A stretch of 64,000 nucleotides of DNA from an uncultured Acidimicrobiales bacterium (GTDB taxonomy: Bacteria > Actinomycetota > Acidimicrobiia > Acidimicrobiales > SHLQ01): assembly GCA_938038815.1 (NCBI GenBank), contig CALHTF010000059.1, positions 15,023-79,022 of the forward strand, read 5' to 3'. The stretch's first letter is position 1, and each line of letters opens with the position of its first letter. Positions 10,665-28,488 of this stretch are shown in pieces. Both the position numbers and the translations under genes were made by a program. Under the pieces are notes generated by a model. That model was not told where the DNA came from. It worked only from the letters and a program-made list of their open reading frames with translations, and did not search any database.

Positions 10665-10709
10665 ACTCCAAAAAGGGCCGCGATGTAGCGCGAACCGCCG
10701 GATTTCAGC

Positions 10710-11660: not shown

Positions 11661-11896
11661 TCGATGACCAGGTTCTCGCGTTCAGCGTCGCGGTTAACCC
11701 GCTCGCGGTTACGACGGAACTGTGGGTCGTGGGGTGGCAACAACAACAGACGAGCCGAGAGCCGGTCGCGAAATGATTGGATCATGGCGGCGTCGCCAAA
11801 ATCGGACCGGACTTCCCAATGGGGGGCGGTCGGGCCGAGGTAGATGATCTTGACGCTGCCGACGGGGGCTTGGCGTTCGACGTCGACGTCGCTCAT
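11627..11896 (-). CDS. Hypothetical protein (89 aa)
   Basis: AGGAG RBS upstream; co-oriented between whiB and the ROK gene; globular composition. Confidence 0.75.
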   Translation of the reverse strand: MSDVDVERQAPVGSVKIIYLGPTAPHWEVRSDFGDAAMIQSFRDRLSARLLLLPPHDPQFRRNRERVNRDAERENLVIEWDLGYPEDEA

Positions 11897-11930
11897 TGCG
11901 CGCTCCTAGAAACGTTGTGAAGAGCCAAGC

Positions 11931-12236
11931 TTAGTGCGCTACGGCCGATTCGCCTTCCTCGGCGAGGTCGATCTCGGCCTGGCGGGCGGCCTGCTTCTGC
12001 GCCTTGGCGGCCGCCGCGTTGCGCTTGCGGACCATACGGCGACGAGAGCGCTCCGATTCGGCGCCCCAGACGCCGTGGTCGATCTTGTTGGTAAGGGCGT
12101 ACTCGAGGCAGTGGTCCATCATCGGGCAGGACCGGCAGATGCGTTGGGCCTTGATTACGCCCACACCGTCGCTTGGGAAAAAGACGGCGGGGTCTTCGTG
12201 GGCGCACTTACCGAGCGCCATCCAGTTGGTGTCCAT
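11931..12236 (-). CDS. WhiB-family Fe-S transcriptional regulator
   Basis: Four Cys (C..CRSC.....C), DPAVFFP, HGVWGAESERSRR. GGGAG RBS. Confidence 0.92.
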   Translation of the reverse strand: MDTNWMALGKCAHEDPAVFFPSDGVGVIKAQRICRSCPMMDHCLEYALTNKIDHGVWGAESERSRRRMVRKRNAAAAKAQKQAARQAEIDLAEEGESAVAH

Positions 12237-12455
12237 ATTTTCGGAACTCCCTCTACGAGCTAGTACCTATGACGTTCATAAGTGCCAGAAAGTTCCCGTA
12301 AAGCCAATATTTTCGAGAATAGATCTCGGTGGTAGACCACGTCGCTCTATTACGGCCAATACAACCTGATTGGCACATGGGTTTATTGCAGTAGCAAGGT
12401 TCGTAAGACGTCCGTAACGAAGCGAGTACCGCTGGAATTACAGCGATCTCGGCAG

Positions 12456-12464
12456 TTATCCACA
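12456..12464 (+). promoter_or_regulatory. Perfect DnaA box TTATCCACA
   Basis: Exact 9-mer in the AT-rich intergenic region upstream of the whiB gene. Confidence 0.45.
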
Positions 12465-12484
12465 GCCAGAAACTTTTTGGTGGA

Positions 12485-13357
12485 CTACAGCCCTACACCG
12501 TCGAGCAGCGATTTGCAGGTCTTTTGCACCTGGTTGAACAGCCCGCCGTCCGGCTCGGGCAAGTTCTGCGCCAACTCTTCCATCGCGGCGCCCGACGAGA
12601 GCGAACCAACGATCGTGTAGGTCACGCCGTCGCGGTCGACCACCAAGATGTCGGCCTCGCCGTCTTGGAGGTGCCAAGCGTCGTCGCCGTCCATCTTCAT
12701 CGTCTCGGATTCGGGCATGTCGTTCGACTCGACGTAGCCCGACTGGCGAAATACCGAGATGACCTCTTTGCCGTCGGTGTAGATCATCTGCAGCACGTCG
12801 TCGTCGTTCTCGTACGCACTCATCATCTGCATCGAGCTCCCGCTCGGGCCCATCTTGGTGGCCTCGTTGAGATCCATCAGGTGGTAGCCGTCGGTTTCCA
12901 TGTCTTGCATCTCGTCGTCTTCCATTTCCGGCATGGCCGCGGCGGCCTCGGCGTGACGACTCGCAAATTCGTCGAGGGCCGGAACCCGTTCGATGGCGGC
13001 GATTCCCGACCCAAAGCCCAGGACCAGCAAGAACACCGCAGCCACGGCGATTCCCGAGGTGAGCTTTGACCGCAACGAGCGTCGAGACTCGCGCTGAGCC
13101 GATAACGACGCCACGTTTGCGGGCAACTCCGCTGTTGGGTCGGCGGTGCCCTTTTCAAGCATGGCTTCAAAGAAGCCGGCCGGTGGCTCGACCATCGGAA
13201 GGTCGCGCACTTCAGCTCGTACGGCGGTAAGCGCAGCGAGTTCGTCGGCCAGCTCGGGCGAGTCGGCGAGAGCCGTCTCGACCTGGGCTTTTTCAGCGTC
13301 GGCGAGCTCGCCGTCGAGGTAGGCGTTGAGTAGTTCGGAAGTTTCGTTGTGGTCCAT
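12485..13357 (-). CDS. Membrane anti-sigma factor (RseA-like; ZAS fold without zinc ligands)
   Basis: ELLNAYLDGEL, one TM helix, extracytoplasmic domain. Start overlaps the sigma factor stop. Confidence 0.88.
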   Translation of the reverse strand: MDHNETSELLNAYLDGELADAEKAQVETALADSPELADELAALTAVRAEVRDLPMVEPPAGFFEAMLEKGTADPTAELPANVASLSAQRESRRSLRSKLTSGIAVAAVFLLVLGFGSGIAAIERVPALDEFASRHAEAAAAMPEMEDDEMQDMETDGYHLMDLNEATKMGPSGSSMQMMSAYENDDDVLQMIYTDGKEVISVFRQSGYVESNDMPESETMKMDGDDAWHLQDGEADILVVDRDGVTYTIVGSLSSGAAMEELAQNLPEPDGGLFNQVQKTCKSLLDGVGL

Positions 13358-13884
13358 TAGTCGAAGTCCTCGACAAGCAGCGGCCGAAGGCGGGACCGGC
13401 CGCGATGGATGCGGCTGCGGACGGTTCCGACCGGCACACCGGTCTGTTCAGAAATCTCGTCGTAGGTCAGACCTACGACATCGCACATCACCACCGCAGC
13501 GCGGTAGTCGTCGGGCAGGGTCATCAGTGCTTCTTGCACGTGAGCGGGAAGTTGTTGTTCGGCGAGCGCATCGTCGGCGCCAGGTGCGCCGGCGAGTACG
13601 CGATCGGGTTCGTCGGGCAGCGCCTCTTCTGGGCGGCGCTTCTTCTTGCGAACGTTGTCCAAGAAGACGTTGGTGGTGATGCGGCTCAACCATCCGTTGA
13701 GGTTGCCGGGCTGATAATTCACCAACCCCCGCTCTACTCGCAGTAGCACTTCTTGAACCAGATCCTGTGTGTCGTCGTGATTGCCGGTGAGCCGGTACGC
13801 CACGGTGTAAAGAAATCGACCGTGGTCACGGGCGATGTCTTCCCAGGTGGGTACCTGTTCATCGTTGGAATTCTCAGGAGTCAT
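13357..13884 (-). CDS. sigE: ECF sigma factor, SigE-like
   Basis: PTWEDI...AYRLTGN..DLVQE, YQPG..GWLSRITTNVFLD, GTVRSRIHRGR match mycobacterial SigE-type motifs. Confidence 0.85.
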   Translation of the reverse strand: MTPENSNDEQVPTWEDIARDHGRFLYTVAYRLTGNHDDTQDLVQEVLLRVERGLVNYQPGNLNGWLSRITTNVFLDNVRKKKRRPEEALPDEPDRVLAGAPGADDALAEQQLPAHVQEALMTLPDDYRAAVVMCDVVGLTYDEISEQTGVPVGTVRSRIHRGRSRLRPLLVEDFD

Positions 13885-13982
13885 AGTTCTGTTCGACCGA
13901 CGCTAATCGGTACACCTTTGCAGGTGCGTAGTGGTCAGCGTTTGATCGTCGAGAGCCACAATTCCATAAGAGTTACCTACAG

Positions 13983-14008
13983 AACGGCGCGACAGTTGGG
14001 TTGGTTCC
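13983..14008 (-). promoter_or_regulatory. SigE-type promoter GGAAC-N17-CGTT
   Basis: Minus strand GGAAC CAACCCAACTGTCGCGC CGTT, about 100 nt upstream of sigE. Confidence 0.65.
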
Positions 14009-14041
14009 CAGAAACTGAAAGAAAACTCTGAACCGGCGAAG

Positions 14042-14209
14042 TTACGCGGTCTTGTCGTCGTCTTCGTCGATTCCGGTCTCGATGCCGTCTTTAAACTCTT
14101 TTTGAGCTTGACCAAGCGATCGGGCGAGCTTCGGCAGTTGGCTTCCGCCAAAGACGAGCAACAGAACCACAAGAATGATGATGAGTTCGGGCGTACCAAG
14201 AGATCCCAT
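14042..14209 (-). CDS. tatA: Twin-arginine translocase subunit TatA (55 aa)
   Basis: Manual translation MGSLGTPELIIILVVLLLVFGGSQLPKLARSLGQAQKEFKDG...; below the ORF-track length cutoff. Confidence 0.93.
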   Translation of the reverse strand: MGSLGTPELIIILVVLLLVFGGSQLPKLARSLGQAQKEFKDGIETGIDEDDDKTA

Positions 14210-14266
14210 GAGCTACAGGGTAGCGCTTGGTCTAGGGGTACCGCGATTCAGGGGAAATTTCGTCGA

Positions 14267-14563
14267 TTAGTTGGTTTGGGAGAGCACGACAGGCTCTGCC
14301 GACGCTGCGGCGGCGCGGGCCAGGGCCCGTTGGCGACGGATCCGACGACGCTCGCGTTCGCTCATTCCGCCCCAAATACCGAACTTTTCGCCGTTTTGGA
14401 GGGCGAATTCCAGGCAATCTTCACGCACGACACAACCGCGGCAGACCTCTTTTGCCTCGCGGGTGGATGCACCGCGCTCGGGGAAGAACAGGTCAGGGTC
14501 AACGCCTAGGCAGTTTGAGAACTCTTGCCAGGTTGTATCGAGATCGGGTTTGGCGAGACGCAT
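14267..14563 (-). CDS. whiB: WhiB/WhiB2-type regulator
   Basis: CLGVDPDLFFPERGASTREAKEVCRGCVVREDCLEFAL..GEKFGIWGGMSERERR. ATG 14563 chosen. Confidence 0.93.
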   Translation of the reverse strand: MRLAKPDLDTTWQEFSNCLGVDPDLFFPERGASTREAKEVCRGCVVREDCLEFALQNGEKFGIWGGMSERERRRIRRQRALARAAAASAEPVVLSQTN

Positions 14564-16394: not shown

Positions 16395-17522
16395 ATGTTT
16401 GAGATCCATGACACGTCGAGCCTTGCCGACCACCTCGATACTCACGGCACCCTCGACTGCACGGTGCTGCAGGGGCTCGATCTCGCCAACGACTCGATGC
16501 CGGTCGAGCAGCTGTGCCAGCTCGACTGGTCGGGAGCGACGATCCTCGGCGGGGTGATCCCCGACGATCTTCGCCTCGCCATGGTGTCGTCGGGCGCCAT
16601 CGTGTTGCCCCGCCTGCCGAACCTGCCGTTCCTCCCCTATCGCCCGCGCCTGTACGAGCTCGACGAGCTGATGGCCGGCTACAAGAAGGGCTCGACCGAC
16701 TCGATTCAGGCCACCACCGACTACCAGATCTACCTGCACGCCAAGCAGGTGCGAGACGCTGGCAAACACGCGTCGGTCATGAGCACCCTCTTCCAGCGCA
16801 TCCACGACCATGCCGTCGACGACGCCATGAACGACTTCTTGGTCGACCACGACCGGGTGGTCGCCATCATGGGCGGCCATGCCCTCAAACGCGACGAACA
16901 GAAGTACGCCGACGTGGTCGAACTCGGTCGACGACTGGCCCGCGAAAACGCTCTTGTGGTGAGCGGCGGTGGCCCAGGAGCGATGGAGGCGGCCAACCTG
17001 GGGGCCTGGCTCGCGCCGCACCCCGACACGGCCGCGGCCGAAGCGATCGCCACGCTCTCGGGCAACACCGACTATCGCACGGCCGAATATCTCGACCTTG
17101 GGTACGAGGTGCGTTCGGCGTTCCCCGATGGCGCCGCCAGCCTCGCCATTCCGACCTGGTTCTACGGCCACGAACCCACCAACCAGTTCGCAACCCATAT
17201 CGCCAAGTACTTCTCGAACAGCATCCGCGAAGACGGCCTGCTCGCCATTGCGACCCACGGTGTTGTGTTCACGCCCGGCTCGGCGGGCACGGTCCAGGAG
17301 ATCTTTCAGGACGCCACCCAAAACCACTACGCAACCTTCGAACACATTTCGCCGATGGTGTTCCTTGGCCGGGAGTACTGGACCAACAAGCTGCCAGTGA
17401 TGCCCCTTATCGAGGCGTTGTCGGCGGGCCGGCCCTACGCCGAGTTGATCGCCATGGTCGATACCCCCGACGAGGTGGTCGAGTTCTTAAACTCGCATCC
17501 TCCAATTCCAAGCCCCGAGTAA
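16395..17522 (+). CDS. LOG-family (Rossmann-fold) nucleotide-binding protein
   Basis: IMGGH, SGGGPGAMEAANLGA, IPTWFYGHEP, IAKYFSNSIREDGL, PGSAGTVQEIFQD. Confidence 0.88.
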   Translation: MFEIHDTSSLADHLDTHGTLDCTVLQGLDLANDSMPVEQLCQLDWSGATILGGVIPDDLRLAMVSSGAIVLPRLPNLPFLPYRPRLYELDELMAGYKKGSTDSIQATTDYQIYLHAKQVRDAGKHASVMSTLFQRIHDHAVDDAMNDFLVDHDRVVAIMGGHALKRDEQKYADVVELGRRLARENALVVSGGGPGAMEAANLGAWLAPHPDTAAAEAIATLSGNTDYRTAEYLDLGYEVRSAFPDGAASLAIPTWFYGHEPTNQFATHIAKYFSNSIREDGLLAIATHGVVFTPGSAGTVQEIFQDATQNHYATFEHISPMVFLGREYWTNKLPVMPLIEALSAGRPYAELIAMVDTPDEVVEFLNSHPPIPSPE

Positions 17523-17650
17523 CGCTCCATCCCAGCTCAGGCCAAAAAGGGTGGCTTTTGAGCGAGTGCGCTCTGATGGTTAGGTTCCCTCCAGGGGGTT
17601 TTTGGTCTTGGGTCGTCGATGCGACGCTTTTGGGCCCCTTGGGAGCAACT

Positions 17651-19081
17651 ATGAAACGTTCGTCGATAGCTCGACTGTTTGCGGTACTCGCAACCGCTGC
17701 GATGATCGCGACCGCGTGCAGCGAACCACTAGAGGAAGAGCAAGGCGCACCGGATAGCACCGCCGCGGCGCCGGCCTTGACGACTTCGCCCGCAACGGAA
17801 ACGACCGTCGAACCTTCCGACTCGCCCGACACCACCGTCGCTGCGGCCGACGATGCGCCAGTCGATGACGGGTCGGTGGTCTTTCGGTTCGCCGGAGAAG
17901 AGTGGTTCATGGGCACCGTTCCCAACCAAGCGGTGGCGGCCGACCCCGACGCCGAACCAATCCGACTCGGCATGCTCAACATCGAGAACGTCGACGGGTT
18001 CTCCTTCCCCGAACTGCGCGGCGCGGCCGAAGCCGCGGCCACCTTCGTCAACAACGAACTGGGCGGGGTCGGTGGGCGACCGATCGAGATCGTCCCATGC
18101 ATCACCAGTCTGAGCCCCGAGCAGTCCCAAACCTGTGCCCAAGAGCTCGTGCAAGAGGGTGTGGTGGCTCTGGTCGGCGGAATCGATGTGATGAGCCAAG
18201 GCTCGGTGCCAGTGCTCGAACAGAACGCCGTGCCCACCTTGGGCGGGATCCCGGCCGGGCTACCCGAAATGCAGTCAGGGGCGCACTTCTACTTCTCCGG
18301 CGGCACGCCTGGCGCCATGGCCGCCATGCTCGCCCACGCCGAAAAGAACGGTGCCGCGAGCGCCCTGATCGCCCACGCCGACCTCCCGTCGTTCAACGTG
18401 ATGGCGGCCGACTTCGCCAAACCGGTCGGCGAGTCGCTCGGCATGGACGTCGAGATCGTGAAATTCCCACTCATCGGCGCCGACATGCTTCCGGTACTGA
18501 CTGCGGCCGCCGACGCCGATGTCGACGCGCTGATCGTCAACGCAGCCGATACGGCGTGTATCCCCATCATGGAACTCGCCCAACAGCTTGAGCTTCGGGC
18601 GCAGGTCTACTTGGTCGGCGCGTGTGCAGCCCCCGAGATTCTCGACGAGGCCGGCGCGGCAGCGGGCGGCATTATCTTTAGCGGCGAAGGCCCGGCCGAC
18701 CCCAACGCCATCGGCGGCTCGATCTTCGATGCGGTCGTGGCCCAGTACGCAACCGGCCCGGCCGAAGCCGCTGGCACGGTTGCGTTCCGCGGGTTTATGA
18801 ACACCTACTGGGTGCTGACCGAACTGGGTGCCGACAACATCAGCGCCGACTCGATCACCGAGTTCATGCGCTCGACCGTCGACCGGCCGTCGTTCTGGGG
18901 CCACGCCTATACCTGTGATGGCCAGCGCATTCCTGGCCTGCCAGCGTTGTGTGCCCCTGAACAGGCGCTGTTCACCGCCACGGGCGTGCCCGGCGAGAAC
19001 ATCGTGTTCTTGCCTGAAGACTTCGCCGATACCGACGGCTGGATCGAAACCGACGACCTCTACGCCGACGCCCTTTCGTAG
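17651..19081 (+). CDS. ABC transporter substrate-binding lipoprotein (LivJ/Peripla_BP_6 type)
   Basis: GGGAG RBS + ATG 17651, lipobox IATAC, Thr/Pro linker, FVNNELGGVGGRPIE. Confidence 0.9.
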   Translation: MKRSSIARLFAVLATAAMIATACSEPLEEEQGAPDSTAAAPALTTSPATETTVEPSDSPDTTVAAADDAPVDDGSVVFRFAGEEWFMGTVPNQAVAADPDAEPIRLGMLNIENVDGFSFPELRGAAEAAATFVNNELGGVGGRPIEIVPCITSLSPEQSQTCAQELVQEGVVALVGGIDVMSQGSVPVLEQNAVPTLGGIPAGLPEMQSGAHFYFSGGTPGAMAAMLAHAEKNGAASALIAHADLPSFNVMAADFAKPVGESLGMDVEIVKFPLIGADMLPVLTAAADADVDALIVNAADTACIPIMELAQQLELRAQVYLVGACAAPEILDEAGAAAGGIIFSGEGPADPNAIGGSIFDAVVAQYATGPAEAAGTVAFRGFMNTYWVLTELGADNISADSITEFMRSTVDRPSFWGHAYTCDGQRIPGLPALCAPEQALFTATGVPGENIVFLPEDFADTDGWIETDDLYADALS

Positions 19082-19086
19082 GTGCG

Positions 19087-21024
19087 ATGTCGCATCTGAC
19101 CTTTCTTATCGTCGGTCTCGGCAGCGGCGCGGTCATCGCGGCTCTCGGGGTCGGTGTGGTGGTCGCCCACCGGGTTAGTCGGGTGGTCAACTTCGCTCAT
19201 GCGGCAATGGGCATGTACATCGCCTTTGTCTTCTACGAACTGCGAGCCACCGGCGACGCGGTCCTACCGATCTTGGGCTTGCCTGCCCGGGTGCCACTGG
19301 TACCCCGGCCAACGGTCGCTACAGCGTTCATTTTGTCGATGGTGATCGCCGCCATTGTTGGGGCGCTGATCTATCTGTTGATCTTTCGACCCTTGCGCAC
19401 CGCGCCCGCGCTCGCCCGGGTGGTGGCCTCGCTGGGCTTGTTCGTGTACCTCATCGCGATCGTTGGCTTGCGGTTCGCATCCGAGACCGGCGCGTCGCGC
19501 ACCCTCGACGGCCCCCTCCCCGACCACCTGATCACCTGGGGCTCGGTTCGGGTGCCGGCCGATCGTTATCTGCTGGCGGCGATCGTGATCGGGGCAGCCG
19601 CCGTGCTGTCGGCCGGGTATCGGTACACCCGTTTCGGGCTGGCCACCCGGGCCGTGGCGGGCAACGAACGCGGGGCAACGCTGATGGGAATCTCGCCCAA
19701 TGCGGTCGGCGTGGCCAACTGGGTTATCGCCACCATGCTGGCTGGAGCGGCCATGATCCTCGCCGCTCCCGTCGTGCGACTTGAGCCAACCACCACCAGC
19801 TTGCTCATCGTGCCGGCGGTCGCTGCAGCGCTGCCGGGCCGCTTCAACTCGGTATGGGCGACCGTGCTCACCGGGCTCGCCATCGGCATGGTCCAGACCG
19901 AAATTCTGCACCTGCAAACCCAGTGGGAATGGCTGCCCAACGTGGGCCTACAACAGGGCATCCCGCTGCTAATCGTGCTCATCACGTTGGCGGTGCGAGG
20001 CGAGGTATTGCCCGACCGTGCGGCCCTACAAACCTCGAGCCTGCCGTTAGCCGGCGATACTCGGCGGGTGCCGCTCGCGGCCGGGGTGTTGTTGGTCATT
20101 GGACTCGTGGCCGCGACGTTCGTCGGCTCGGAGTGGCGGTCGGGAATCATCGTGAGCGCCATCGCCACCATCGTTGCCCTCTCGGTGGTGGTGGTCACCG
20201 GCTACGTCGGGCAAATCTCGCTAGCCACCTTCGCGATCGCGGGCTTGGCCGCTTTCGGCATGGTGCGCTTGGGTGAGGCGTGGAACCTGCCGTTTCCGCT
20301 CGCCCCGATCGCCGGAATCGTGGTGGCTGTGTTGGCCGGAATGATCGCTGCATTGCCAGCAGTGCGGGTGCGAGGCCTCAACCTGGCGATCGCCACGTTG
20401 GCCGGCGCGGTGGCAGTCGAAGAGTTGGTCTTTAAATGGTCGTGGTTCACCGGCGGACTCGAAGGGGCACGGGCCGAGTCGCCCACCCTCTTCGGCCTCG
20501 ATCTCGGCATCACCGCACTAGGCGACGCGTTTCCCCGTCGAACCTTCGTGGTGTTGACCTTGCTAGCTGCCGCCTTGGCTCTCGTGATGGTCGGCAACCT
20601 CCGCCGCGGTACAACCGGACGGCGTTGGCTAGCCGTGCGAGCCAACGAACGAGCGGCCGCCGCAGCCGGCATCTCGGTATCGGGCGTCAAGCTTTCGGCA
20701 TTCGCTATCTCGAGCGCGCTTGCCGGAACCGCCGGGGTGCTGCTTGCCTATCAGCGCACGATCGTATCGCCTGGCTCGTTCGGGGTCATCGATTCGCTCG
20801 TGGCGGTAGCTATCGCCTACCTCGCCGGCATCGCCACCCCGGTCGGGGCAGTTGTGGCCGGGGTATTAGCCACTGGCGGCCTACTGACGGTCGCCCTCGA
20901 CGCACTCAGCGACAACGCGTCGTCGTATCAATTCGCGGTGAACGGTCTGTTGCTGATCGTCGCCGCAGTGAAGTTCCCGCAAGGAATCGTCGGCGTACGC
21001 GCCGCAATCGGACAAAACAAGTGA
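19087..21024 (+). CDS. Fused LivH-LivM type ABC permease
   Basis: VVNFAHAAMGM, TRFGLATRAVA, TGYVGQISLA, RVRGLNLAIATL, GRRWLAVRANE. Confidence 0.93.
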   Translation: MSHLTFLIVGLGSGAVIAALGVGVVVAHRVSRVVNFAHAAMGMYIAFVFYELRATGDAVLPILGLPARVPLVPRPTVATAFILSMVIAAIVGALIYLLIFRPLRTAPALARVVASLGLFVYLIAIVGLRFASETGASRTLDGPLPDHLITWGSVRVPADRYLLAAIVIGAAAVLSAGYRYTRFGLATRAVAGNERGATLMGISPNAVGVANWVIATMLAGAAMILAAPVVRLEPTTTSLLIVPAVAAALPGRFNSVWATVLTGLAIGMVQTEILHLQTQWEWLPNVGLQQGIPLLIVLITLAVRGEVLPDRAALQTSSLPLAGDTRRVPLAAGVLLVIGLVAATFVGSEWRSGIIVSAIATIVALSVVVVTGYVGQISLATFAIAGLAAFGMVRLGEAWNLPFPLAPIAGIVVAVLAGMIAALPAVRVRGLNLAIATLAGAVAVEELVFKWSWFTGGLEGARAESPTLFGLDLGITALGDAFPRRTFVVLTLLAAALALVMVGNLRRGTTGRRWLAVRANERAAAAAGISVSGVKLSAFAISSALAGTAGVLLAYQRTIVSPGSFGVIDSLVAVAIAYLAGIATPVGAVVAGVLATGGLLTVALDALSDNASSYQFAVNGLLLIVAAVKFPQGIVGVRAAIGQNK

Positions 21025-21031
21025 GGATCCC

Positions 21032-22591
21032 ATGGCACTAACAACCAAACCCTTTGCCGCAAGCAAGGGAAGCGAGATGGCCCTAGCCGACGAGACAACG
21101 TTGCGTACCTGGAGCGAACTCGACGCGCGGGTCAACCAATTGGTGCACGCGTTGCAAGGCGCCGGACTCAAACCCGGCGATACGGCGGCCATCGTCTCCG
21201 GCAATCGGGTCGAGTGGTTTGAGCTGACCCTGGCGTGCGCCCACTCAGGCGTGATCTTCGTACCGGTCAACTGGCACCTGGTCGCACCCGAGATGGCCTA
21301 CATCTTCGGCGACTCTGGCGCGAAGGCGGTATTCGCCGGCGAGCGGTACATCGACATCGTGGCCGAGGCGCTAACCGACGAGCGATGCAGCAACGTCGAG
21401 CTGAAGGTAGCCATCGGCGACGGCGGAGACCACGGCATGGTCCCGTTTGAGGAGTTCGTGGCCACCGGCTCGGCCGACGAACCCGAAACCCAAGTCCTCG
21501 GCGGCCCGATGTTCTACACCTCGGGTACCACCGGCAACCCCAAAGGGGTCCGCAGCGGGCTCTCGTTCATGGGCCCCGAAACCAGCCCCGAAATGTGGCT
21601 GCTGGTCGGCGGCGGCTTCACCGAGCCGCTACCCACCGAGGGCACCACCGTGTTGTGCGGCCCCTGTTATCACTCGGCTCAGTGGGCGTACTCGTTCATC
21701 CCGCTGTTGGTGGGTTCGTCGGTCGTCATGCAACACAAGTACGACAGTACTGGCCTGCTCGAGCTGATCGACACCCACCGCTGCACCAACGTGCACCTCG
21801 TACCGACCCAGATGAAACGCCTCATGGATCTACCCGACGACGTGAAGGCCAGCTACGACGGCTCGTCGATGGAGTACGTGATCCATGGCGCGGCACCGTG
21901 CCCGCCGGCGGTCAAGCGTTCGCTTATCGACTGGTGGGGCCCAAAGATCAGCGAGTACTACGGCTCGACCGAAGGGTCGATCATCTCGATCGTCAGCAGC
22001 GAGGAGTGGCTCGAACGGGGCGGCAGCGTCGGCAAACCCCAGCCCACGATCGAGATCATGGTGGTCGGCGAAAACGGCGAGCACCTCGGTCCGAACGAGT
22101 CGGGCACGCTCTACTTCCGCAACCTGATGGGCATGGACTTCGAGTACCACAACGCCCCCGAAAAAACGGCCGACGCCCACCTCGAACCAGGGGTGTTCAC
22201 CACCGGCGACGTCGGGTACCTCGACGACGACGGCTACCTGTGGCTTAGCGATCGCAAGATCGACATGATCATCTCCGGCGGTGTCAACATCTACCCCGCC
22301 GAGATCGAGGGCGCCCTCGGTGGCCATCCCGATGTGGCCGACGTTGCGGTGATCGGCGTTCCGAACGACGAGTTCGGTGAAGAGGTCAAGGCCGTCGTCG
22401 TGCCGACCTCGGGCGTGGGCGACGACGACCTGCGGGCCGTCCTCGGCGAGTTCTGTCGTACCAACCTGGCCGGCTACAAGGTGCCTCGGTCGTTCGACTT
22501 CCTCGACGCCCTCCCCCGTACCGGCACCGGCAAGGTCCAAAAGCGCAAGCTTCGCGATCCGTACTGGGAAGGCATCGACCGGTCGATCTAA
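21032..22591 (+). CDS. Acyl-CoA synthetase / AMP-binding protein
   Basis: YTSGTTGNPKG, EYYGSTEG, TGDVGYLD, SGGVNIYPAEIE, PRTGTGK. Confidence 0.95.
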   Translation: MALTTKPFAASKGSEMALADETTLRTWSELDARVNQLVHALQGAGLKPGDTAAIVSGNRVEWFELTLACAHSGVIFVPVNWHLVAPEMAYIFGDSGAKAVFAGERYIDIVAEALTDERCSNVELKVAIGDGGDHGMVPFEEFVATGSADEPETQVLGGPMFYTSGTTGNPKGVRSGLSFMGPETSPEMWLLVGGGFTEPLPTEGTTVLCGPCYHSAQWAYSFIPLLVGSSVVMQHKYDSTGLLELIDTHRCTNVHLVPTQMKRLMDLPDDVKASYDGSSMEYVIHGAAPCPPAVKRSLIDWWGPKISEYYGSTEGSIISIVSSEEWLERGGSVGKPQPTIEIMVVGENGEHLGPNESGTLYFRNLMGMDFEYHNAPEKTADAHLEPGVFTTGDVGYLDDDGYLWLSDRKIDMIISGGVNIYPAEIEGALGGHPDVADVAVIGVPNDEFGEEVKAVVVPTSGVGDDDLRAVLGEFCRTNLAGYKVPRSFDFLDALPRTGTGKVQKRKLRDPYWEGIDRSI

Positions 22592-22594
22592 CCC

Positions 22595-23356
22595 ATGGCA
22601 CTCCTGGAAACCAACGGCCTCACCGTCACGTTCGGCGGCTTGCACGCCAACGACGGCATCGACATCTCGGTCGAACGCGGCCGTTTTGTCGGGCTGATTG
22701 GCCCCAACGGTGCCGGCAAGACCACCTTCATCGACGCCATCACCGGGTTCGTGCCCATCTCCGACGGCACCGTTCGCTTCGCCGGCGAGCTGTTCACGAC
22801 TGTCGCCCCGCACGAACGGGCCCGTCGCGGGTTGTCCCGCACCTTCCAGCAACTCGAGCTCTTCGAGGACCTCACGGTCGAAGACAATCTGCTCGCGGCG
22901 GCCGAAACCCCAACCTGGACCGACGTGCTACTCGACATCGTTCGCCCCGGCCGGGTATCGCCCCATCAGGGCGACGTCGAGTGGGCGCTCGAAACGGTGG
23001 GGCTCGCCGAGTCGCTCAAGGCCTTCCCAAGCGACCTTTCGCACGGCCAACGCAAGCTCGTGGGCGTAGCCCGAGCGTTGGCTGCTCGCCCCCAACTCGT
23101 GCTGCTCGACGAGCCCGCCGCCGGACTCGATACAACCGAGAGCCAAGAGATCGGCGGCCGACTGCGCGGGCTGCTCGACCACGACGTCTCTGTCTTGTTG
23201 ATCGACCACGACATGGGCCTGGTGCTGAACGTGTGCGACGAGGTGTACGTGCTCGACTTTGGCGGGGTGATCGCCCACGGTACCCCGGCCGAGATCCGCA
23301 CCAACCCGCGGGTGGTCGCCGCCTACTTGGGCGCCGAGGCGGAGCAGTCGTCGTGA
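22595..23356 (+). CDS. ABC ATP-binding protein (LivG-like)
   Basis: GPNGAGKT, RTFQ, LSHGQ, LLDEPAAG, IDHDM. Confidence 0.95.
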   Translation: MALLETNGLTVTFGGLHANDGIDISVERGRFVGLIGPNGAGKTTFIDAITGFVPISDGTVRFAGELFTTVAPHERARRGLSRTFQQLELFEDLTVEDNLLAAAETPTWTDVLLDIVRPGRVSPHQGDVEWALETVGLAESLKAFPSDLSHGQRKLVGVARALAARPQLVLLDEPAAGLDTTESQEIGGRLRGLLDHDVSVLLIDHDMGLVLNVCDEVYVLDFGGVIAHGTPAEIRTNPRVVAAYLGAEAEQSS

Positions 23357-24075
23357 CCGAACCGTTGCTGAGCGCCGAGAACCTGTCGACCGGCTATGCC
23401 GGGGTGCCCGTGGTTCGTGGCGTTTCGCTCAGCGTGTCGGCGGGAGAGGTTGTGGCGTTGCTTGGCCCGAACGGGGCCGGCAAAACCACCACACTGCTCG
23501 CCATTTCCGGGCTGCTACCCGTGCTCGACGGAGCGGTCACGGTGCTGGGCGAACAGGTCGACGAAAAGGCCCCGTTCAAGAACGCCCGCCGAGGCATGGC
23601 CCACGTTGCCGAAAACCGGTCGCTGTTCAACGACCTCACCGTCGCCGAGAACCTTCGGCTCGGAATCACCGGCCCGAAATCCGACCGAGCCCAGTCGCTC
23701 GACCTGGTGCTGGCCCGCTTCCCCGAACTCGAACCAACGATGGACCGAAAGGCCGGTTTGTTGTCGGGCGGCGAACAACAGATGCTTGCCATGGCCCGGG
23801 CCTTGGCGTCGCGACCCAAGCTTTTGCTGGTCGATGAGATGAGCCTCGGCCTGGCGCCGATCATCGTTGAGCGGATGTTGCCGATCGTGCGCGATGTGGC
23901 CGACGAATTGGGCACCGGGGTGTTGATGGTGGAACAGCACATCCACATGGCGTTAGGGATCGCCGACCGGGCCTACCTACTCAACCACGGCGAACTCGTC
24001 CTTGAGGGCAACGCCGCCGAACTGGCCGACCGGCCAGAACTACTCGAAGCCAGTTACCTAGGAGACAGCTCGTGA
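23353..24075 (+). CDS. ABC ATP-binding protein (LivF-like)
   Basis: GTGA overlap at 23353; GPNGAGKT, LSGGEQQM, VDEMSLGLAP, VEQH. Confidence 0.95.
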   Translation: MTEPLLSAENLSTGYAGVPVVRGVSLSVSAGEVVALLGPNGAGKTTTLLAISGLLPVLDGAVTVLGEQVDEKAPFKNARRGMAHVAENRSLFNDLTVAENLRLGITGPKSDRAQSLDLVLARFPELEPTMDRKAGLLSGGEQQMLAMARALASRPKLLLVDEMSLGLAPIIVERMLPIVRDVADELGTGVLMVEQHIHMALGIADRAYLLNHGELVLEGNAAELADRPELLEASYLGDSS

Positions 24076-25523
24076 CCGACACACAAAAGATTGAGCCAAC
24101 CAACACGTGGGACACCCCACATCTGCAGGGACTCATGGCGCCAGTGTTCGACGAACGCGACGACGATGACCTCACCGTGGAGGGTGAACTTCCAGCCGCC
24201 CTCGACGGCATGTTTCTTCGCAACGGCCCAAACCCGCAGTTCGCACCGCTGGGTGCGTATCACCCCTTCGACGGTGACGCGATGCTGCACGCCGTCTATC
24301 TCAAGGACGGTAAGGCTCGGTACCGCAACCGGTGGCTCGAGTCGAAAGGCCTCCTAGCCGAACGGGCGCGAGGCAAGGCGTGTTACGGCGGAATGAGCAA
24401 CTACCAAATGCCCGAGCCCGACGTGATGGCTGAGGGCGGCATGTTGAAAAACACCGGCAACACGGCAACGGTGCGCCACGCTGGCCGCTACTTCGGGCTA
24501 CTGGAGGCCGGGCCGCCGACCGAGTTCAACCTTGAACTCGAAACGCTCGGCGAATACGACTTCGGCGGCCGGTTGGCTGGCCCCATGACCGCACACCCCA
24601 AGGTCGATCCGGTCACCCGCGAGATGATCTTTTTCGGGTACAGCCCAATGGAGCCGTACCTGCGCTACCACGAGGTCAGCCCGACCGGCGAGCTCACCCA
24701 TAGCGCCGAACTCGACATCCCCAACCCGGTCATGATGCACGACTTCGTACTCACCGAGAACTACGCCATCTTCTTCGACGCCCCAGCGATCTTCGACCTC
24801 GACGCGCTGCTCAACGGTCGCGAGCCAATGAAGTGGCGACCCGACTCCGGAACCCGGATCGGCGTTGTACCTCGCGGCGGCACGAGCGGTGACGCTCGCT
24901 GGTTCGAGATGGATAACTGCTACGTCGTGCACTTCTTCAACGCCTTCGAGACAACCACCGACGCTGGCAAAACGATCGAGGTACGAGCACCACGGATGGC
25001 CGATATGCCGGGCGGGTTCGAGTTCGAACAACCCGGCGGGGCGAGCGAACCAATGCCATGGAAGTGGGTGCTCAACCTTGACACCGGTGTGGTTACCGAC
25101 GAACAGACCGACGACTTGGCGGGCGAGTTCCCTCGTATCAACGAGCACTACCTCGGCCGTAAGGCTCGGTACGGCTATGAATGCCCAGCCCGTAGCTGGG
25201 AGTTCGACTTCGACTTTTGCGGGGTGGTCAAATACGACTTCGAGCAGAACACCTCCGAAGTCTACAACTACGCCGATTCACAGGTCAGCGGCGAACACGC
25301 CTTTGTTCCCGACCCAAACGGCCAGGCCGAAGACGACGGCTGGCTCATGAGCTTTGTCACCGACCGGGCGACCGAAACTTCCGAGCTGGCGATCATCGAC
25401 GCCCGCGACGTGTCGGCCGGGCCTATCGCCCGCGTGCAGATGGCGGCTCGAGTTCCCCTTGGCTTTCATGCCAACTGGTTCGCCACCGAGCCAACCAAAC
25501 TGAATCAGGTGTCTGACACCTGA
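24072..25523 (+). CDS. Carotenoid cleavage oxygenase family protein 1
   Basis: RNGPNP, HPFDGDAM; four Fe-ligand His (TAHPK, MMHDF, VVHFFN, GFHANW); EFPRIN, EDDGW. Confidence 0.95.
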   Translation: MTDTQKIEPTNTWDTPHLQGLMAPVFDERDDDDLTVEGELPAALDGMFLRNGPNPQFAPLGAYHPFDGDAMLHAVYLKDGKARYRNRWLESKGLLAERARGKACYGGMSNYQMPEPDVMAEGGMLKNTGNTATVRHAGRYFGLLEAGPPTEFNLELETLGEYDFGGRLAGPMTAHPKVDPVTREMIFFGYSPMEPYLRYHEVSPTGELTHSAELDIPNPVMMHDFVLTENYAIFFDAPAIFDLDALLNGREPMKWRPDSGTRIGVVPRGGTSGDARWFEMDNCYVVHFFNAFETTTDAGKTIEVRAPRMADMPGGFEFEQPGGASEPMPWKWVLNLDTGVVTDEQTDDLAGEFPRINEHYLGRKARYGYECPARSWEFDFDFCGVVKYDFEQNTSEVYNYADSQVSGEHAFVPDPNGQAEDDGWLMSFVTDRATETSELAIIDARDVSAGPIARVQMAARVPLGFHANWFATEPTKLNQVSDT

Positions 25524-25532
25524 TTCAGTTTG
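25496..25532. repeat. Perfect 37-bp palindrome between convergent CCO genes (REP-like or bidirectional terminator)
   Basis: CAAACTGAATCAGGTGTC-T-GACACCTGATTCAGTTTG; contains the CCO1 stop codon. Confidence 0.85.
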
Positions 25533-25545
25533 AGGGCAGGAACCG

Positions 25546-27015
25546 CTAGCGAGCGTCGTTGAGCATGACCTTGTCGTGCCAGAACCCGTGGAACTGGTGC
25601 GGTAAGTGGTGCTTCAGTTTGAGGGTAGCGACCGGCTCGGCGATGTCGGCCGCCCGGAAGATCATCAACGAACTGTTGTGCTCGTGCGCGTTGTAGACCA
25701 CCTCAAAGAGGTAGCCATCCTGGTCCGCGTTTGAGTTCTTCGACGGCGCAAACAGCGGCTCCGAACCGAAGTAGCCGGGCGCAAGGGTGTTGAGCTGAAT
25801 GTCGCCGTCGAAGTCGACTCGCTGGAAGCCATTGAAGAAGCTGTTGTGTCCGTTCTCGACCGACACCGCTGAGTAGGTCGCTTCGTGCTTTTGGCCGGCG
25901 ACTGTTTGGTTGAAGGTCGGAAACTCCGAGTTGGTCGGGCTCATGACCTCGTGCGACATCTCGCCGCTGGCCATGTTCAACCGGTACCGGCGGAATTCGC
26001 CGCCCCGCAATTCTTTGGCGTTGAACACATCGCTCAGTGCATCGTTGGCCACAAAGTTGTCGGCGAACATCGCGTCGACCACCACCTCGTCGCCATCCTC
26101 GAAGGCATTACCGAAGTGGATGATCGCGCCGGCTCCGGTCTCGAACTTGCGAACCTCTTGCATCGTGTCGAGGTCGACCACCGAAACGGTCATGGGGATC
26201 GACGGGTCGAACCCGATGCCATCGCCGATGGTGCGCTGGCCGAGCATTACCGGGCCGATCGAACCCATGCTGATCGAGCCCACGAAGAAGATGGCGTACT
26301 TGCCCGACACGGCGAAGTCGTGGGCGAACGGGAAGTGCTCGATCGGTAACTGGCCGAACTTCTTCACCTTGCCCGCTGAGTCGATACGGAAGATGTTGAA
26401 GCACATCTTGGGGCCGTTCTTGTCGTACCCCAGCGAACCGGCACCAAAGTTGACCCAGTCGCCCGTTTGCCCCAGGTAGTGACCGTGGGCGCTGAACACC
26501 ATGCTTCGTTTCAGGCCGCCGTCGTAGGTGTATTCACCATGGGTTTCAAGCGTGGTGGCGTCGACATGGAACGGCCGGCCGCCTTCGTACAGGGTCAGCA
26601 GTTTCCCGCCGTGGTACACCAGGTTGGTGTTGGACGGGTTGGCTGGCATGCGGCCAACGTTCTTGAGGATCCCGCCCGGGATCTGGGTTCCGAACCCGCG
26701 GTAGCAGATCTGTTGTTTGGCCGTTTCCTTCACGTACTTGGGCGTGCGCACGTAGCGGTTAGCGAAGTGAACCTTGCCTTCGTCGATCGAAAACACGCTG
26801 AGCATGCCGCAGCCATCGAACCAGTGGCCATACTTCTGGTCGCCGATCATCTGACGGCCGGGACCATTGCGGTAGAAGGTGCCCTGAAGGTCGGCCGGCA
26901 CTGTCCCTTCGACATCGTCGAGCCAGTAGCTGTGCTCCTCGTCAAGGTTAGCCAAACCACCGTGCATGGTTGGGGCGGCGGTTGTGCTTACCGATGCGTC
27001 TTCGATGGTGGTCAT
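25546..27015 (-). CDS. Carotenoid cleavage oxygenase family protein 2 (divergent subtype)
   Basis: YRNGPG, HWFDGCGM; His ligands in SAHGH, FAHDF, IIHFGN, QFHGFW; SEPLF. Confidence 0.93.
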   Translation of the reverse strand: MTTIEDASVSTTAAPTMHGGLANLDEEHSYWLDDVEGTVPADLQGTFYRNGPGRQMIGDQKYGHWFDGCGMLSVFSIDEGKVHFANRYVRTPKYVKETAKQQICYRGFGTQIPGGILKNVGRMPANPSNTNLVYHGGKLLTLYEGGRPFHVDATTLETHGEYTYDGGLKRSMVFSAHGHYLGQTGDWVNFGAGSLGYDKNGPKMCFNIFRIDSAGKVKKFGQLPIEHFPFAHDFAVSGKYAIFFVGSISMGSIGPVMLGQRTIGDGIGFDPSIPMTVSVVDLDTMQEVRKFETGAGAIIHFGNAFEDGDEVVVDAMFADNFVANDALSDVFNAKELRGGEFRRYRLNMASGEMSHEVMSPTNSEFPTFNQTVAGQKHEATYSAVSVENGHNSFFNGFQRVDFDGDIQLNTLAPGYFGSEPLFAPSKNSNADQDGYLFEVVYNAHEHNSSLMIFRAADIAEPVATLKLKHHLPHQFHGFWHDKVMLNDAR

Positions 27016-27066
27016 AGTTCCTTCTTACAGGGCGTGCCGCTCAGGTCAAAGAACTTCGAGCGGTTG

Positions 27067-28488
27067 TCATGAGGCGAACCAGTTGGCGTGGAACCCAAAG
27101 GGCATGCGTTGAGGGATCTGTACCCGAGCGATCGGGCCCGCCTCGACGTCGCGTGCGTCGAGCACCACAACTTCGGAGGTTCCGGACTCGTCGTCGTGGG
27201 TTGAGTTGATCAGCCAGCCGTCATCTTCGGCTTGGCCGTTGGGGTCGGGGGCGAACACGTTTTCGCCCACGTGGCCGTGTTCGCCCGAGTACCACTGGGT
27301 TCGGGTGCCGGTGCGTTGGTCGTACTTCACGATGGTGTCGAAGTCGCCCGCTGCGGCGTTGGGTCGGGTGAATCCCGACATGTACAAACAGTCGGCCCGC
27401 ACGCCGGTGTAGTCGTCGTTGATGCGGCAGAACTCACCGTTCATGTCGTCGAAGAACTCGCTGCCGGACTCCCCCGTGTCGAGGTCGACCCAGTAGCGAG
27501 CCGGCTTCGCACCCACGGTGGTGACACCGCTCTCCTTGTCGGAACCTTCGGCTTCGATGCCAAAGTCGACCTTCTCAAACCGACAGCCCGACAGCTCGAC
27601 CCGGTTGCCCTCAACAAAGGCGTTCCAAAAGTGCTGTACATGGGAGGTCGGAACCTCGAACCAGCGGATGTCCTCGGCGTCGCCCAAGCGGGGCATGACG
27701 CCGACCCGCGTCCCGTTTTCGGGCTTCCATTGGATCATCGACTCGCCCGTGGCCATGGCGTTCATATCGAACACGATCGGGCTATCGAGGAATACGGCGT
27801 GCTCTTCGGTGATGAGCATGTCGTGCATCATCACCGGCATCGGCAGGTCGAGGTCGACCTTGCGGATCAGCTTCCCACCGGCATCGACCACGTAATACAC
27901 GAGGTACGGAGCAAAGAAGTTGTAGGCGAAGAAGAACATCTCACCGGTGCGAGGATCGATGCGAGGGTGGGCGGTCATCGCCCCTTGGAGTTCGCCGTCG
28001 AAGTCCCAGTTACCCACGGTGCCGAGGTCGGGAGCTATCTCGGTCGGGAGGCCCTGTTCCCACAGCGCCAGGATCTTGTTGGCGTGGCGAACAATGTGGG
28101 TGTTGGCCGGGTTCTTCACCGGTCCGGCATCGCCGACGAGCGACTCGTCGGGGAAGTTCATGACATCGCTCAACCCGGGGTACACCGCCCGCCCAAGGTC
28201 GACCTCGGCCATCAGCGCCTTCGACTGGATCCACCGGTTGCGATACGACGCCTGGCCGCCGGCGAACTGCACACCATGGAGCATTCCGTCGCCATCGAAC
28301 ATGTGGTACTTCCCGATGGGTTCGAACATGGGGTTCGGTCCGTTGCGCACGAACATGCCGTTGAGGGCCGCGGGAATCTCGCCGATCACCTCACACTGGT
28401 CGACCACGATCTCCGCATCGACGGGGAACATATTGCCCGCCAGGTCGATCTGGTTCTGGGCGTTGGTTACGTGACCGGTGAGCGTCAT
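27067..28488 (-). CDS. Carotenoid cleavage oxygenase family protein 3
   Basis: RNGPNP, HMFDGDGM, TAHPR, MMHDM, QHFWN, GFHANW, EDDGW. Confidence 0.95.
   Translation of the reverse strand: MTLTGHVTNAQNQIDLAGNMFPVDAEIVVDQCEVIGEIPAALNGMFVRNGPNPMFEPIGKYHMFDGDGMLHGVQFAGGQASYRNRWIQSKALMAEVDLGRAVYPGLSDVMNFPDESLVGDAGPVKNPANTHIVRHANKILALWEQGLPTEIAPDLGTVGNWDFDGELQGAMTAHPRIDPRTGEMFFFAYNFFAPYLVYYVVDAGGKLIRKVDLDLPMPVMMHDMLITEEHAVFLDSPIVFDMNAMATGESMIQWKPENGTRVGVMPRLGDAEDIRWFEVPTSHVQHFWNAFVEGNRVELSGCRFEKVDFGIEAEGSDKESGVTTVGAKPARYWVDLDTGESGSEFFDDMNGEFCRINDDYTGVRADCLYMSGFTRPNAAAGDFDTIVKYDQRTGTRTQWYSGEHGHVGENVFAPDPNGQAEDDGWLINSTHDDESGTSEVVVLDARDVEAGPIARVQIPQRMPFGFHANWFAS

Follow-up and report, generated by a model that had tools for sequence, protein, structure and literature searches.

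The presence of three carotenoid cleavage oxygenases (CCOs) beside a complete ATP-binding cassette (ABC) importer of the LIV/HAAT type and an acyl-coenzyme A (CoA) ligase raises the question of what such an importer could bring into the cell for these enzymes to cleave. The genes lie at positions 17651 to 28488 of a 64,000-nucleotide stretch of DNA, hereafter the window, from an uncultured Acidimicrobiales bacterium whose nearest named relatives are Ilumatobacteraceae metagenome-assembled genomes (MAGs). The answer that we propose, about which as a whole we are evenly divided, is that the window holds the local form of a module found across the Acidimicrobiia, in which a LIV/HAAT importer would be coupled to cytoplasmic CCOs and serve the scavenging and catabolism of pigments made by other organisms. 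Its parts are not equally firm: a functional coupling of transporter and CCOs is quite probable, judging from gene order and conservation, and a carotenoid-derived cargo is slightly favoured.

Gene calls, based on the open reading frame (ORF) listing together with Pfam and NCBIfam scans, confirmed eight genes at the boundaries proposed by a sequence-only reading of the window. Those on the forward strand follow each other between 17651 and 25523 and encode a solute-binding protein (SBP; LIV/HAAT-type lipoprotein, 476 aa, 17651..19081), a fused LivH/LivM-type permease (645 aa, 19087..21024), the acyl-CoA ligase (519 aa, 21032..22591), which stands between the permease and the ATPase genes, a LivG-like ABC ATPase (253 aa, 22595..23356), a LivF/UrtE-like ABC ATPase (240 aa, 23353..24075) and CCO1 (483 aa, 24072..25523). 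The successive junctions measure 5, 7 and 3 nt and are then replaced by two 4-nt GTGA overlaps, in which the GTG start of the second ATPase overlaps the stop of the first and the start of CCO1 overlaps the stop of the second; this packing agrees with the single operon that the same reading had recognized. On the reverse strand CCO2 (489 aa, 25546..27015) and CCO3 (473 aa, 27067..28488) converge on the operon, as had also been described, and their coordinates and strands bear this out.

Domain content places each product in its superfamily. A Peripla_BP_6 binding protein (102.7 bits, with a lipobox cysteine, Cys23, and six conserved cysteines), two BPD_transp_2 stretches in the permease (with about 14 hydrophobic segments), and ATPases of the LivG type (with a BCA_ABC_TP_C tail) and the LivF type together make up an importer of the HAAT/LIV type, which we take to be family TC 3.A.1.4. 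The ligase carries AMP-binding (210.7 bits) and AMP-binding_C (71.9 bits) domains and belongs to the ANL superfamily, and all three CCOs match RPE65 (PF03055; gathering cut-off 27) over their full length, with 447, 379 and 440 bits for CCO1, CCO2 and CCO3, respectively. Neither a signal peptide nor a long hydrophobic N-terminus was found in the CCOs, which are for this reason taken as cytoplasmic.

Whether transporter and CCOs belong together was judged from their conservation. In a tblastn search of its own genome the SBP had no paralogue, the permease had two distant ones (three permease-like matches) and the ligase had 25 further paralogues; since the SBP is single-copy, the search with this protein is the sharper test of linkage. 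Within the family of the host, the SBP occurred in 15 of 42 genomes and in 7 of 8 genera, and 13 regions were fetched. The SBP-permease pair directly adjoins a CCO in seven of the eight loci with a usable SBP flank (L105-L110 and L113, of which L105 and L106 come from the same genus), with SBPs 52-56% and permeases 60-68% identical to those of the window; no CCO was seen beside the pair in L112, and the contigs of L111, L114 and L115 end at the SBP. Two congeners (G003 and G006) likewise carry a divergent SBP/CCO pair, as judged from coordinates. Since the SBP-linked CCO of the family is only 34-40% identical to CCO1 and CCO3 (and 36-40% to CCO4, the fourth CCO of the host), the window genome has swapped CCO partners, having lost the subtype of its relatives and carrying CCO1 joined onto the ATPase end instead.

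The same association extends to the class. Among 401 sampled Acidimicrobiia genomes an SBP homologue (E≤1e-40) was present in 41, from 23 of 178 genera, and ±9 kb were fetched around 40 of these matches, one weak partial match (G281) being dropped. A typical CCO was found in 15 of the 40 loci, nearly always adjoining a transporter gene, and ORF clustering brought in L174 and L181, each with an RPE65-like gene that is long (~577 aa) and divergent, which raises the CCO-linked loci to 17 of 40. When only loci with full flanks are counted, 12 of 20 hold a CCO, as compared to ~0.5 of 20 expected by chance, a value calculated by hand from the CCO candidates (1-10 per genome) and the genome sizes. 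A CCO was moreover present in 39 of the 40 SBP-positive genomes (the exception is G217) vs. 121 of the 360 SBP-negative ones; three genomes marked as unpublished (G253, G430 and G316) are part of these counts. The gene orders are diverse: the CCO follows SBP, permease and both ATPases on one strand (L175, with a 63% CCO1-like enzyme, L177, L178 and L179), stands 5' of the SBP on the same strand (L173, L177, L179), diverges from it (L147, L148, L151), converges after the second ATPase as a 63-64% CCO3-like protein (L163, L165, L170), or lies inside the transporter cluster (L151, L157). Convergence after the second ATPase of the transporter is the usual position of the CCO3 clade in other families, and CCO3 of the window holds it too, save for the inserted CCO1 and CCO2. 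In a tree of 62 non-redundant CCO sequences those linked to a transporter are distributed over at least four clades, nine changes of the label being required, and in a tree of 44 SBPs CCO-linked members are scattered through both main clades, the window SBP being placed in a clade of 12 members of which 11 are CCO-linked. The variety of arrangements points to repeated selection for the pairing rather than to one inherited accident.

A number of results weigh against this picture, some of them on the side of linkage and others on that of the ligand. No CCO was found within 9 kb in 23 of the 40 class loci, many of which lie on short contigs; the linked and unlinked labels on the CCO tree are biased by the way in which loci were collected; the genomes are MAGs and the relatives are not independent of each other. 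In the congeners a different CCO subtype diverges from the SBP, and the ligase is located elsewhere. The view from CCO1 is less favourable still: a search with one genome per species yielded 80 loci with 10-kb flanks, and in the 18 loci with orthologues at 66-74% identity the full transporter was never present (0/18), any LIV-type component within 10 kb being found in only 4 of them. Two of these have ATPase or permease homologues 6-7 kb from the CCO1 orthologue (L023, L039), and in two a different Peripla_BP_6 gene adjoins it (L017, L024). A cytochrome P450 gene (L022, L023, L038, L039) or a 33%-identical ligase (L022, L028, L030) is found immediately 5' of some CCO1 orthologues, and short-chain dehydrogenases/reductases (SDRs), Rieske oxygenases and an aldehyde dehydrogenase neighbour others; more distant CCOs, 47-49% identical, adjoin homologous transporters in L016, L020, L027 and L035. 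The exact gene layout of the window is species-specific and not conserved.

As for the ligand, the SBP is predicted by AlphaFold to have a type-I binding-protein fold (pLDDT 88), and Cys23, at the end of the lipoprotein signal, is invariant in 44 homologues. Its nearest solved protein is remote (E 1.8e-7), and at 12-19% identity the model resembles proteins that bind leucine, p-coumarate, 4-hydroxybenzoate, fatty acids, urea or amides to about the same degree. Since the fold search ranks such diverse ligand binders alike, the ligand cannot be read from the fold, and an assignment by homology was dropped on account of the remote sequence matches to solved structures and the indiscriminate fold matches; an ordinary small ligand could fit the modelled protein as well. 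In seven homologous loci (L155, L160, L161, L167, L169, L172, L180) the SBP stands beside greA, ilvE, leuA or leuB, with no CCO, a neighbourhood that might hint at branched-chain amino acids. These observations would suit an ordinary amino-acid or fatty-acid importer that merely neighbours CCOs and shares no substrate with them, as would the loci lacking a nearby CCO. We nevertheless consider such an importer decidedly unlikely. The SBPs beside ilvE, leuA or leuB are nested inside CCO-linked clades, and their neighbour genes form a housekeeping block; no NCBIfam family was matched by the SBP, the LivJ/LivK equivalogs included, and permease and ATPases remained far below the Liv equivalog cut-offs (92 vs. 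366, 204 vs. 362 and 162 vs. 441 bits), so that the transporter does not classify as LivJHMGF. The translational coupling of CCO1 to the ATPase through GTGA, the frequency of CCOs in full-flank loci, their co-occurrence with the SBP across genomes, and the several independent gene orders and CCO clades also argue for a substrate shared between transporter and CCOs.

The ligase is a frequent, not an obligatory, partner of the proposed module, in keeping with a carboxylate as substrate or product and with catabolism. All five congeners have orthologues at 64-68% identity, on the same contig as the SBP only in G003, and a match at E≤1e-140 was obtained in 46 of the 401 class genomes. In the 29 best loci, examined with 1.5-kb flanks, the ligase adjoins a CCO in three (L312, L322, L323), repeats the ligase-ATPase-ATPase order in L297 (69, 69 and 67% identity) and adjoins a permease in L301; in five genomes (G180, G204, G224, G257, G357) a CCO lies 1.3-3.3 kb away by coordinates. 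Linkage to transporter or CCO is thus confined to a minority of loci, and the best orthologues (G104, G372) stand alone, which is a further point against the scheme. The sequence-only reading had tied the CCOs to both transporter and ligase and had called for a synteny survey in Acidimicrobiia, naming a lack of conserved linkage in relatives as a refutation; the transporter link withstood this test in the family and in the class, the exact layout did not recur, and the link to the ligase proved patchy.

Substrate specificity of the ligase could not be assigned by homology, and the attempt was dropped, as matches ranged across fatty-acyl, feruloyl, bile-acid and succinylbenzoate ligases: the best NCBIfam models (PRK12406, FadD4-like) all remained under cut-off (at best 468 bits vs. 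701), and the best solved relatives are a fatty-acyl-CoA synthetase and a feruloyl-CoA synthetase (8weu and 8wev, ~232 bits). Other ligase loci were noted in passing. In L326 (9748-12961, G156:C120) a ligase-ATPase-ATPase row (69, 69 and 65%) occurs and neither SBP nor permease nor CCO is encoded within 8-9 kb of it, as if the energy subunits of the transporter travelled with the ligase. A CCO-ligase-CCO triplet was seen in a Halioglobus MAG (L007, 6763-11374), and CCO-ligase pairs or triplets in metagenome contigs (L244, L245, L250, L252, L280-L282, L286, L290, L292), several of them near-duplicates; the ligases of these Halioglobus and metagenome loci are 26-32% identical to that of the window, apart from L252 (50%). 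Such neighbours in unrelated loci amount to a second recurring partnership of CCOs and lend a catabolic flavour to the ligase link. In relatives of the same family the transporter is set in an island (L110 6033-13592, L114 2784-12536, L106 245-3054, L112 72-1752), whose stretch from the permease to a 66% ligase orthologue holds genes for an ABM monooxygenase, a P450, a zinc-dependent alcohol dehydrogenase, SDRs, a histidine phosphatase and a pair of DUF35 (ChsH2-type) and thiolase-like proteins; just past the ligase follows a luciferase-like monooxygenase, CoA-transferase genes are found elsewhere in the loci, and some islands include Rieske oxygenases. These islands resemble side-chain or terpenoid degradation clusters. 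The stretch in the relatives is a catabolic island, of which the window is a compact version.

Which alkene the CCOs may cleave was approached through their subtypes, based on profile hidden Markov model and PDB scores and one diagnostic residue. The four iron-binding histidines were confirmed in all three CCOs, as the sequence-only reading had claimed, and are invariant in 96 of 96 CCOs aligned with MAFFT; those of CCO1 (H175, H223, H287 and H466) correspond to His167/218/284/476 of NOV1 in a HMMER alignment of the two proteins. CCO1 and CCO3 had been called close paralogues; paralogues they are, at 46% identity not very close ones. CCO2 is indeed of a different subtype, 28% identical to CCO1 and resembling apocarotenoid-15,15'-oxygenase (ACO), with Synechocystis ACO as its best solved match (2biw; 266 bits, E 5.6e-78, residues 21-480); no curated ACO model was matched by CCO2 in the NCBIfam scan, where LSD scored best (187 bits vs. 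a cut-off of 800). The best solved relatives of CCO1, a CCD1/NACOX1-like enzyme, are CCD1-type carotenoid 9,10-dioxygenases (257 bits), followed by NOV1/LSD (~210 bits), and its Nostoc homologues, which we assume to be NosCCD orthologues, are 46-47% identical to it. The best NCBIfam model for both CCO1 and CCO3 is the NACOX1 equivalog NF052295 (8'-apo-carotenoid 13,14-dioxygenase), whose cut-off of 675 bits is reached by none of the host CCOs (CCO1 328, CCO3 311, CCO2 151, CCO4 532), and no window CCO is a member of any NCBIfam equivalog. Every CCO subtype, the linked CCOs of the relatives included, scores best against carotenoid or apocarotenoid enzymes. A further RPE65-like gene, long (577-613 aa) and very divergent (97-112 bits), was observed in 10 transporter loci (L016 7490-9331, L040 2229-3974, L177 11605-13338 and seven more SBP loci), where it is often joined by a TetR regulator (15 loci) and by a 458-aa protein that matches no Pfam family (8 loci).

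The sequence-only reading had also admitted stilbenoids as substrates, and several features would suit the catabolism of stilbenoids or of phenylpropenes derived from lignin (resveratrol, lignostilbene, isoeugenol), with the resulting aromatic acids activated by the ligase: feruloyl-CoA synthetase is among the best solved relatives of the ligase, LIV-type SBPs for hydroxycinnamates exist, LSD/NOV are the second-best NCBIfam models of the CCOs, and Rieske oxygenases occur in some of the relatives' islands. In NOV1, as described in passages of PMC6382310, Tyr101 and Lys134 deprotonate the 4-hydroxyl of the stilbene and His167/218/284/476 bind the iron. In place of Lys134, CCO1 carries Leu144, CCO2 a Tyr, CCO3 a Trp, CCO4 a Val and the transporter-linked CCOs of relatives a Glu or a Met, and among the three window CCOs a Tyr at the position of Tyr101 is kept in CCO1 only. 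Since the catalytic Lys paired with Tyr101 in NOV1/LSD is missing in every CCO, stilbenoids and other 4-hydroxyphenyl substrates are unlikely and this option was not borne out. Scores against the stilbene equivalogs NF053778 and NF053780 did not exceed 273 bits (cut-offs 800 and 650), CCO2 is ACO-like, and the DNA of the window was present in three DNA runs of one metagenome study whose habitat label is marine. As an account of the whole locus, stilbenoid catabolism seems to us very improbable.

With carotenoid-type substrates in view, the CCOs might serve the synthesis of retinal, or of another apocarotenoid cofactor or signal, for the host itself, rather than the use of carbon; CCO2 does resemble the retinal-forming ACO, and an operon in a relative, discussed below, indicates that module and rhodopsin can be combined. 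The host assembly (4.58 Mb in 168 contigs, 91.7% complete) gave no match to Bac_rhodopsin, heliorhodopsin, SQS_PSY (phytoene/squalene synthase) or Blh. The Bac_rhodopsin search is a valid one, because this model matches 83 of the 401 genomes of the class; the blanks for heliorhodopsin and Blh are weak evidence, because both models matched nowhere in the class. A Pfam scan of the window found no flanking gene with a carotenoid or rhodopsin function, in line with the sequence-only reading, which had seen no crt or rhodopsin gene there and had preferred scavenging to retinal synthesis. A family scan counted four RPE65-family genes in the genome, three of them at this locus; the fourth, CCO4 on contig C125, has uninformative neighbours (a glycine-cleavage T protein, hydantoinase genes and an SDR). 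As no rhodopsin was found in the genome, retinal synthesis for own use is unlikely, and the lack of both rhodopsin and phytoene synthase matches favours scavenging. Three CCOs and a CoA ligase, moreover, suit breakdown better than the synthesis of a single chromophore, and since only 4 of the 40 SBP-positive genomes hold a rhodopsin, chromophore supply would not be the general role of the module. For the host we regard the cofactor explanation as most improbable.

The cargo itself may be indicated by one relative, G305, a genome of 1.8 Mb (85% complete) with a single CCO. Its locus L157 (G305:C12) carries on one strand the genes for SBP (8857-10176), permease (10198-12180), CCO (12229-13614) and a Bac_rhodopsin protein (13633-14379), the two ATPases being divergent upstream. 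In the translated rhodopsin we read a Schiff-base lysine and a D-T-E pattern of the proton-pump type. No phytoene synthase or Blh match was found in this 85%-complete genome, the Blh model having matched nowhere in the class. The simplest reading of this row is that the compound imported in G305 is a retinal precursor; the succession of SBP, permease, CCO and rhodopsin would thus place the cargo of the transporter family among carotenoid-derived molecules, a strong hint and not a proof. Two metagenome contigs, L216 and L217, also have the CCO-rhodopsin order; the CCO of L216, which carries the entire operon, is 99% identical to that of G305, and the CCO of L217 is 97% identical. Against a wider use of this hint, the rhodopsin-linked operon is confined to one narrow lineage: of 80 metagenome loci, just these two near-identical contigs show the CCO-rhodopsin order, and no further such operon appeared in 215 loci or in 43 genomes of the family of G305. 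Another genome, G044, has a rhodopsin and no phytoene synthase match, and its CCOs lie far from the rhodopsin.

A last alternative leaves the coupling of transporter and CCOs intact and changes the substrate, the module acting on a non-carotenoid alkene such as another isoprenoid or polyene lipid or an unsaturated acid; "carotenoid" would then be no more than a label of the enzyme family. All CCOs remain under every NCBIfam equivalog cut-off and have modest identity to characterised enzymes, the islands of the relatives look like generic hydrophobic-acid or terpenoid catabolism, and LIV-type SBPs normally take small ligands; in the full-text literature searched, which lies outside subscription-only papers, no precedent for the LIV-type uptake of hydrophobic polyenes was found, a point that also counts against the carotenoid interpretation. 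On the other hand, the best matches of every CCO subtype are carotenoid or apocarotenoid enzymes, and in G305 CCO and transporter genes directly precede a retinal-requiring rhodopsin. We therefore consider a non-carotenoid substrate rather unlikely.

Returning to carotenoid-derived compounds, we infer the following course. The surface lipoprotein SBP would capture an exogenous carotenoid-derived polyene, most plausibly an apocarotenoid bearing a carboxyl group, and the fused permease with the two ATPases would import it. Inside the cell CCO1 and CCO3 (CCD1/NACOX1-like) and CCO2 (ACO-like) may cleave the polyene at different double bonds, and the ligase would form the CoA thioester of the imported acid itself or of acids that unlinked dehydrogenases make from the aldehyde products, degradation then presumably continuing through enzymes encoded elsewhere in the genome. 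There is no aldehyde dehydrogenase in the window locus, which speaks against so complete a route, as one step between cleavage and CoA activation consequently has no local gene. A bolder version, offered tentatively and with more doubt than confidence, is that this SBP-permease-ATPase family would be the first importer of carotenoid-derived molecules in bacteria, paired in each lineage with the CCO needed there and employed in most Acidimicrobiia for pigment scavenging or catabolism, in the G305 lineage for retinal supply.

The boundaries of the operon are marked by a terminator-like hairpin upstream (17582..17601, forward strand; an 8-pair stem followed by a T-run, 3' of a LOG-like gene) and by a perfect palindrome of 35 bp downstream (25497..25532, of no strand), which extends over the stop codon of CCO1, lies between the convergent genes and probably terminates transcription in both directions. 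The palindrome is one of a repeat family found throughout the genome, with 15-nt arms and a 5-nt loop, located between or after genes, whose 15-nt arm has 19 copies on 17 contigs (the other 18 sites are on C4, C11, C13, C32, C36, C53, C73, C79, C93, C105, C120 twice, C127, C131, C143 twice, C146 and C165) and which also looks like repetitive extragenic palindromic elements. Sequencing depth at the palindrome was ~7-fold (X1) and ~5-fold (X2) above the neighbouring bins. Contigs assembled independently at k=31 from two DNA runs extend over 17169-21973 and 23316-25522, bridging the genes from SBP through permease to the ligase start, and the junction of the second ATPase with CCO1; they break at 25507-25522, coinciding with the palindrome between CCO1 and CCO2; a 35-bp repeat is long enough to break a k=31 assembly. 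The adjacency of CCO1 and CCO2 therefore rests on the original assembly and on a relative, L033, where CCO1, an SDR gene, and CCO2 and CCO3 follow each other in the orientation of the window (identities 74, 76 and 79%). A scan for sigma-70-like promoters between 16300 and 34500 returned 0 sites and is uninformative for the phylum of the host.

Among the surrounding genes, hisD and the LOG-like gene form the upstream flank, and a MaoC hydratase, a GH1 and a PhyH-family gene are found farther along the window. An extracytoplasmic function (ECF) sigma factor and zf-HC2 anti-sigma pair lies ~4 kb upstream of the operon (12485-13884, reverse strand), and no TetR or MarR regulator adjoins the window operon, unlike in many relatives. 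Head-to-tail upstream of CCO3, on the reverse strand between 28572 and 34271, are genes for signal-bearing proteins (RTX-repeat, apiosidase-like lipoprotein and GDSL-like) and for a VWA protein; with gaps of 83, 49 and 69 nt and one 1-nt overlap in this run, they may be co-transcribed with CCO3 and CCO2. The idea that the secreted RTX, apiosidase-like and GDSL-like proteins free carotenoid acids from glycosyl esters was set aside, as L033, the nearest syntenic relative, lacks them.

If the proposed module is real, its consequences reach beyond a single genome. Bacterial CCOs have mostly been studied as isolated enzymes, and their class-wide coupling to an importer would provide a candidate transporter for apocarotenoids and related polyenes, offering non-pigmented heterotrophs a route to recycle the large marine pool of algal and bacterial carotenoid breakdown products. 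The annotations "branched-chain amino acid transporter" and "carotenoid oxygenase" would in that case mask a specific, conserved system. The source of retinal in rhodopsin-bearing bacteria with no known retinal genes is described as an open question in the portions of PMC7734400 consulted; the rhodopsin-linked variant yields a tractable hypothesis for retinal acquisition with no blh, diox1 or crt genes, and the G305 lineage, if it supplies retinal from imported precursors, would give a testable answer on the chromophore source.

The full-text literature searched described neither a CCO-importer system nor a bacterial importer of apocarotenoids, and the impression of the sequence-only reading that no characterised system has this layout was sustained. 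The bacterial CCOs characterised in the extracts of PMC5133782 and PMC6097328 are NosCCD, NACOX1, MtCCO from the non-carotenogenic Mycobacterium tuberculosis, ACO and NOV/LSD. CCO2 shares its four-His iron site with Synechocystis ACO/Diox1, its best solved relative; ACO, however, makes retinal in a carotenoid-producing phototroph, whereas the host genome has no phytoene synthase or rhodopsin match. CCD1 (9luz), NosCCD, NACOX1 and MtCCO (Rv0654) are the best solved or NCBIfam relatives of CCO1, CCO3 and the linked CCOs of the relatives, from which these differ by scores of 290-363 bits against the 675-bit equivalog cut-off, and none of the known enzymes has been reported with a dedicated importer. 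NOV1, NOV2 and LSD, which are catabolic in bacteria, share fold and iron site and are the second-best family matches, but Lys134 is missing in every CCO examined and the equivalog cut-offs are not reached. M. tuberculosis offers a parallel in that, according to sections of PMC5133782, CCOs are present there with no carotenoid genes.

On the side of the transporter, the closest parallels come from Rhodopseudomonas palustris, whose COG0683 SBPs, as reported in parts of PMC3223731, bind aromatic, fatty and dicarboxylic acids and have the CoA ligase genes couB and pimA as neighbours. The window resembles pimFABCDE and RPA3723-3725 of this organism, where SBPs for medium- and long-chain acids stand beside a broad-range acyl-CoA ligase and β-oxidation genes (the same parts of PMC3223731), and the islands of the window's relatives also contain thiolase-like, SDR and CoA-transferase genes; pim has no oxygenase that cleaves double bonds, and the likeness holds at family level only. 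With CouPSTU/CouB/CouA the window shares a LIV/HAAT importer encoded beside a CoA ligase, which activates the cargo in the Cou system and is proposed to do so in the window; CouP binds a hydrophobic carboxylic acid, not an amino acid (PMC3223731, in the same parts), and the CouP structures 4f8j and 4jb2 are among the top fold matches of the window SBP. The Cou system, in contrast, lacks a CCO and takes up an aromatic acid that a hydratase/lyase processes, and the SBP identity is ~15%; in the window, the transporter operon itself includes the ligase gene, and translational coupling joins an oxygenase to the ATPase. Compared with these systems, the new part would be a catabolic locus in which a substrate-specific importer and a ligase are coupled to alkene-cleaving oxygenases.

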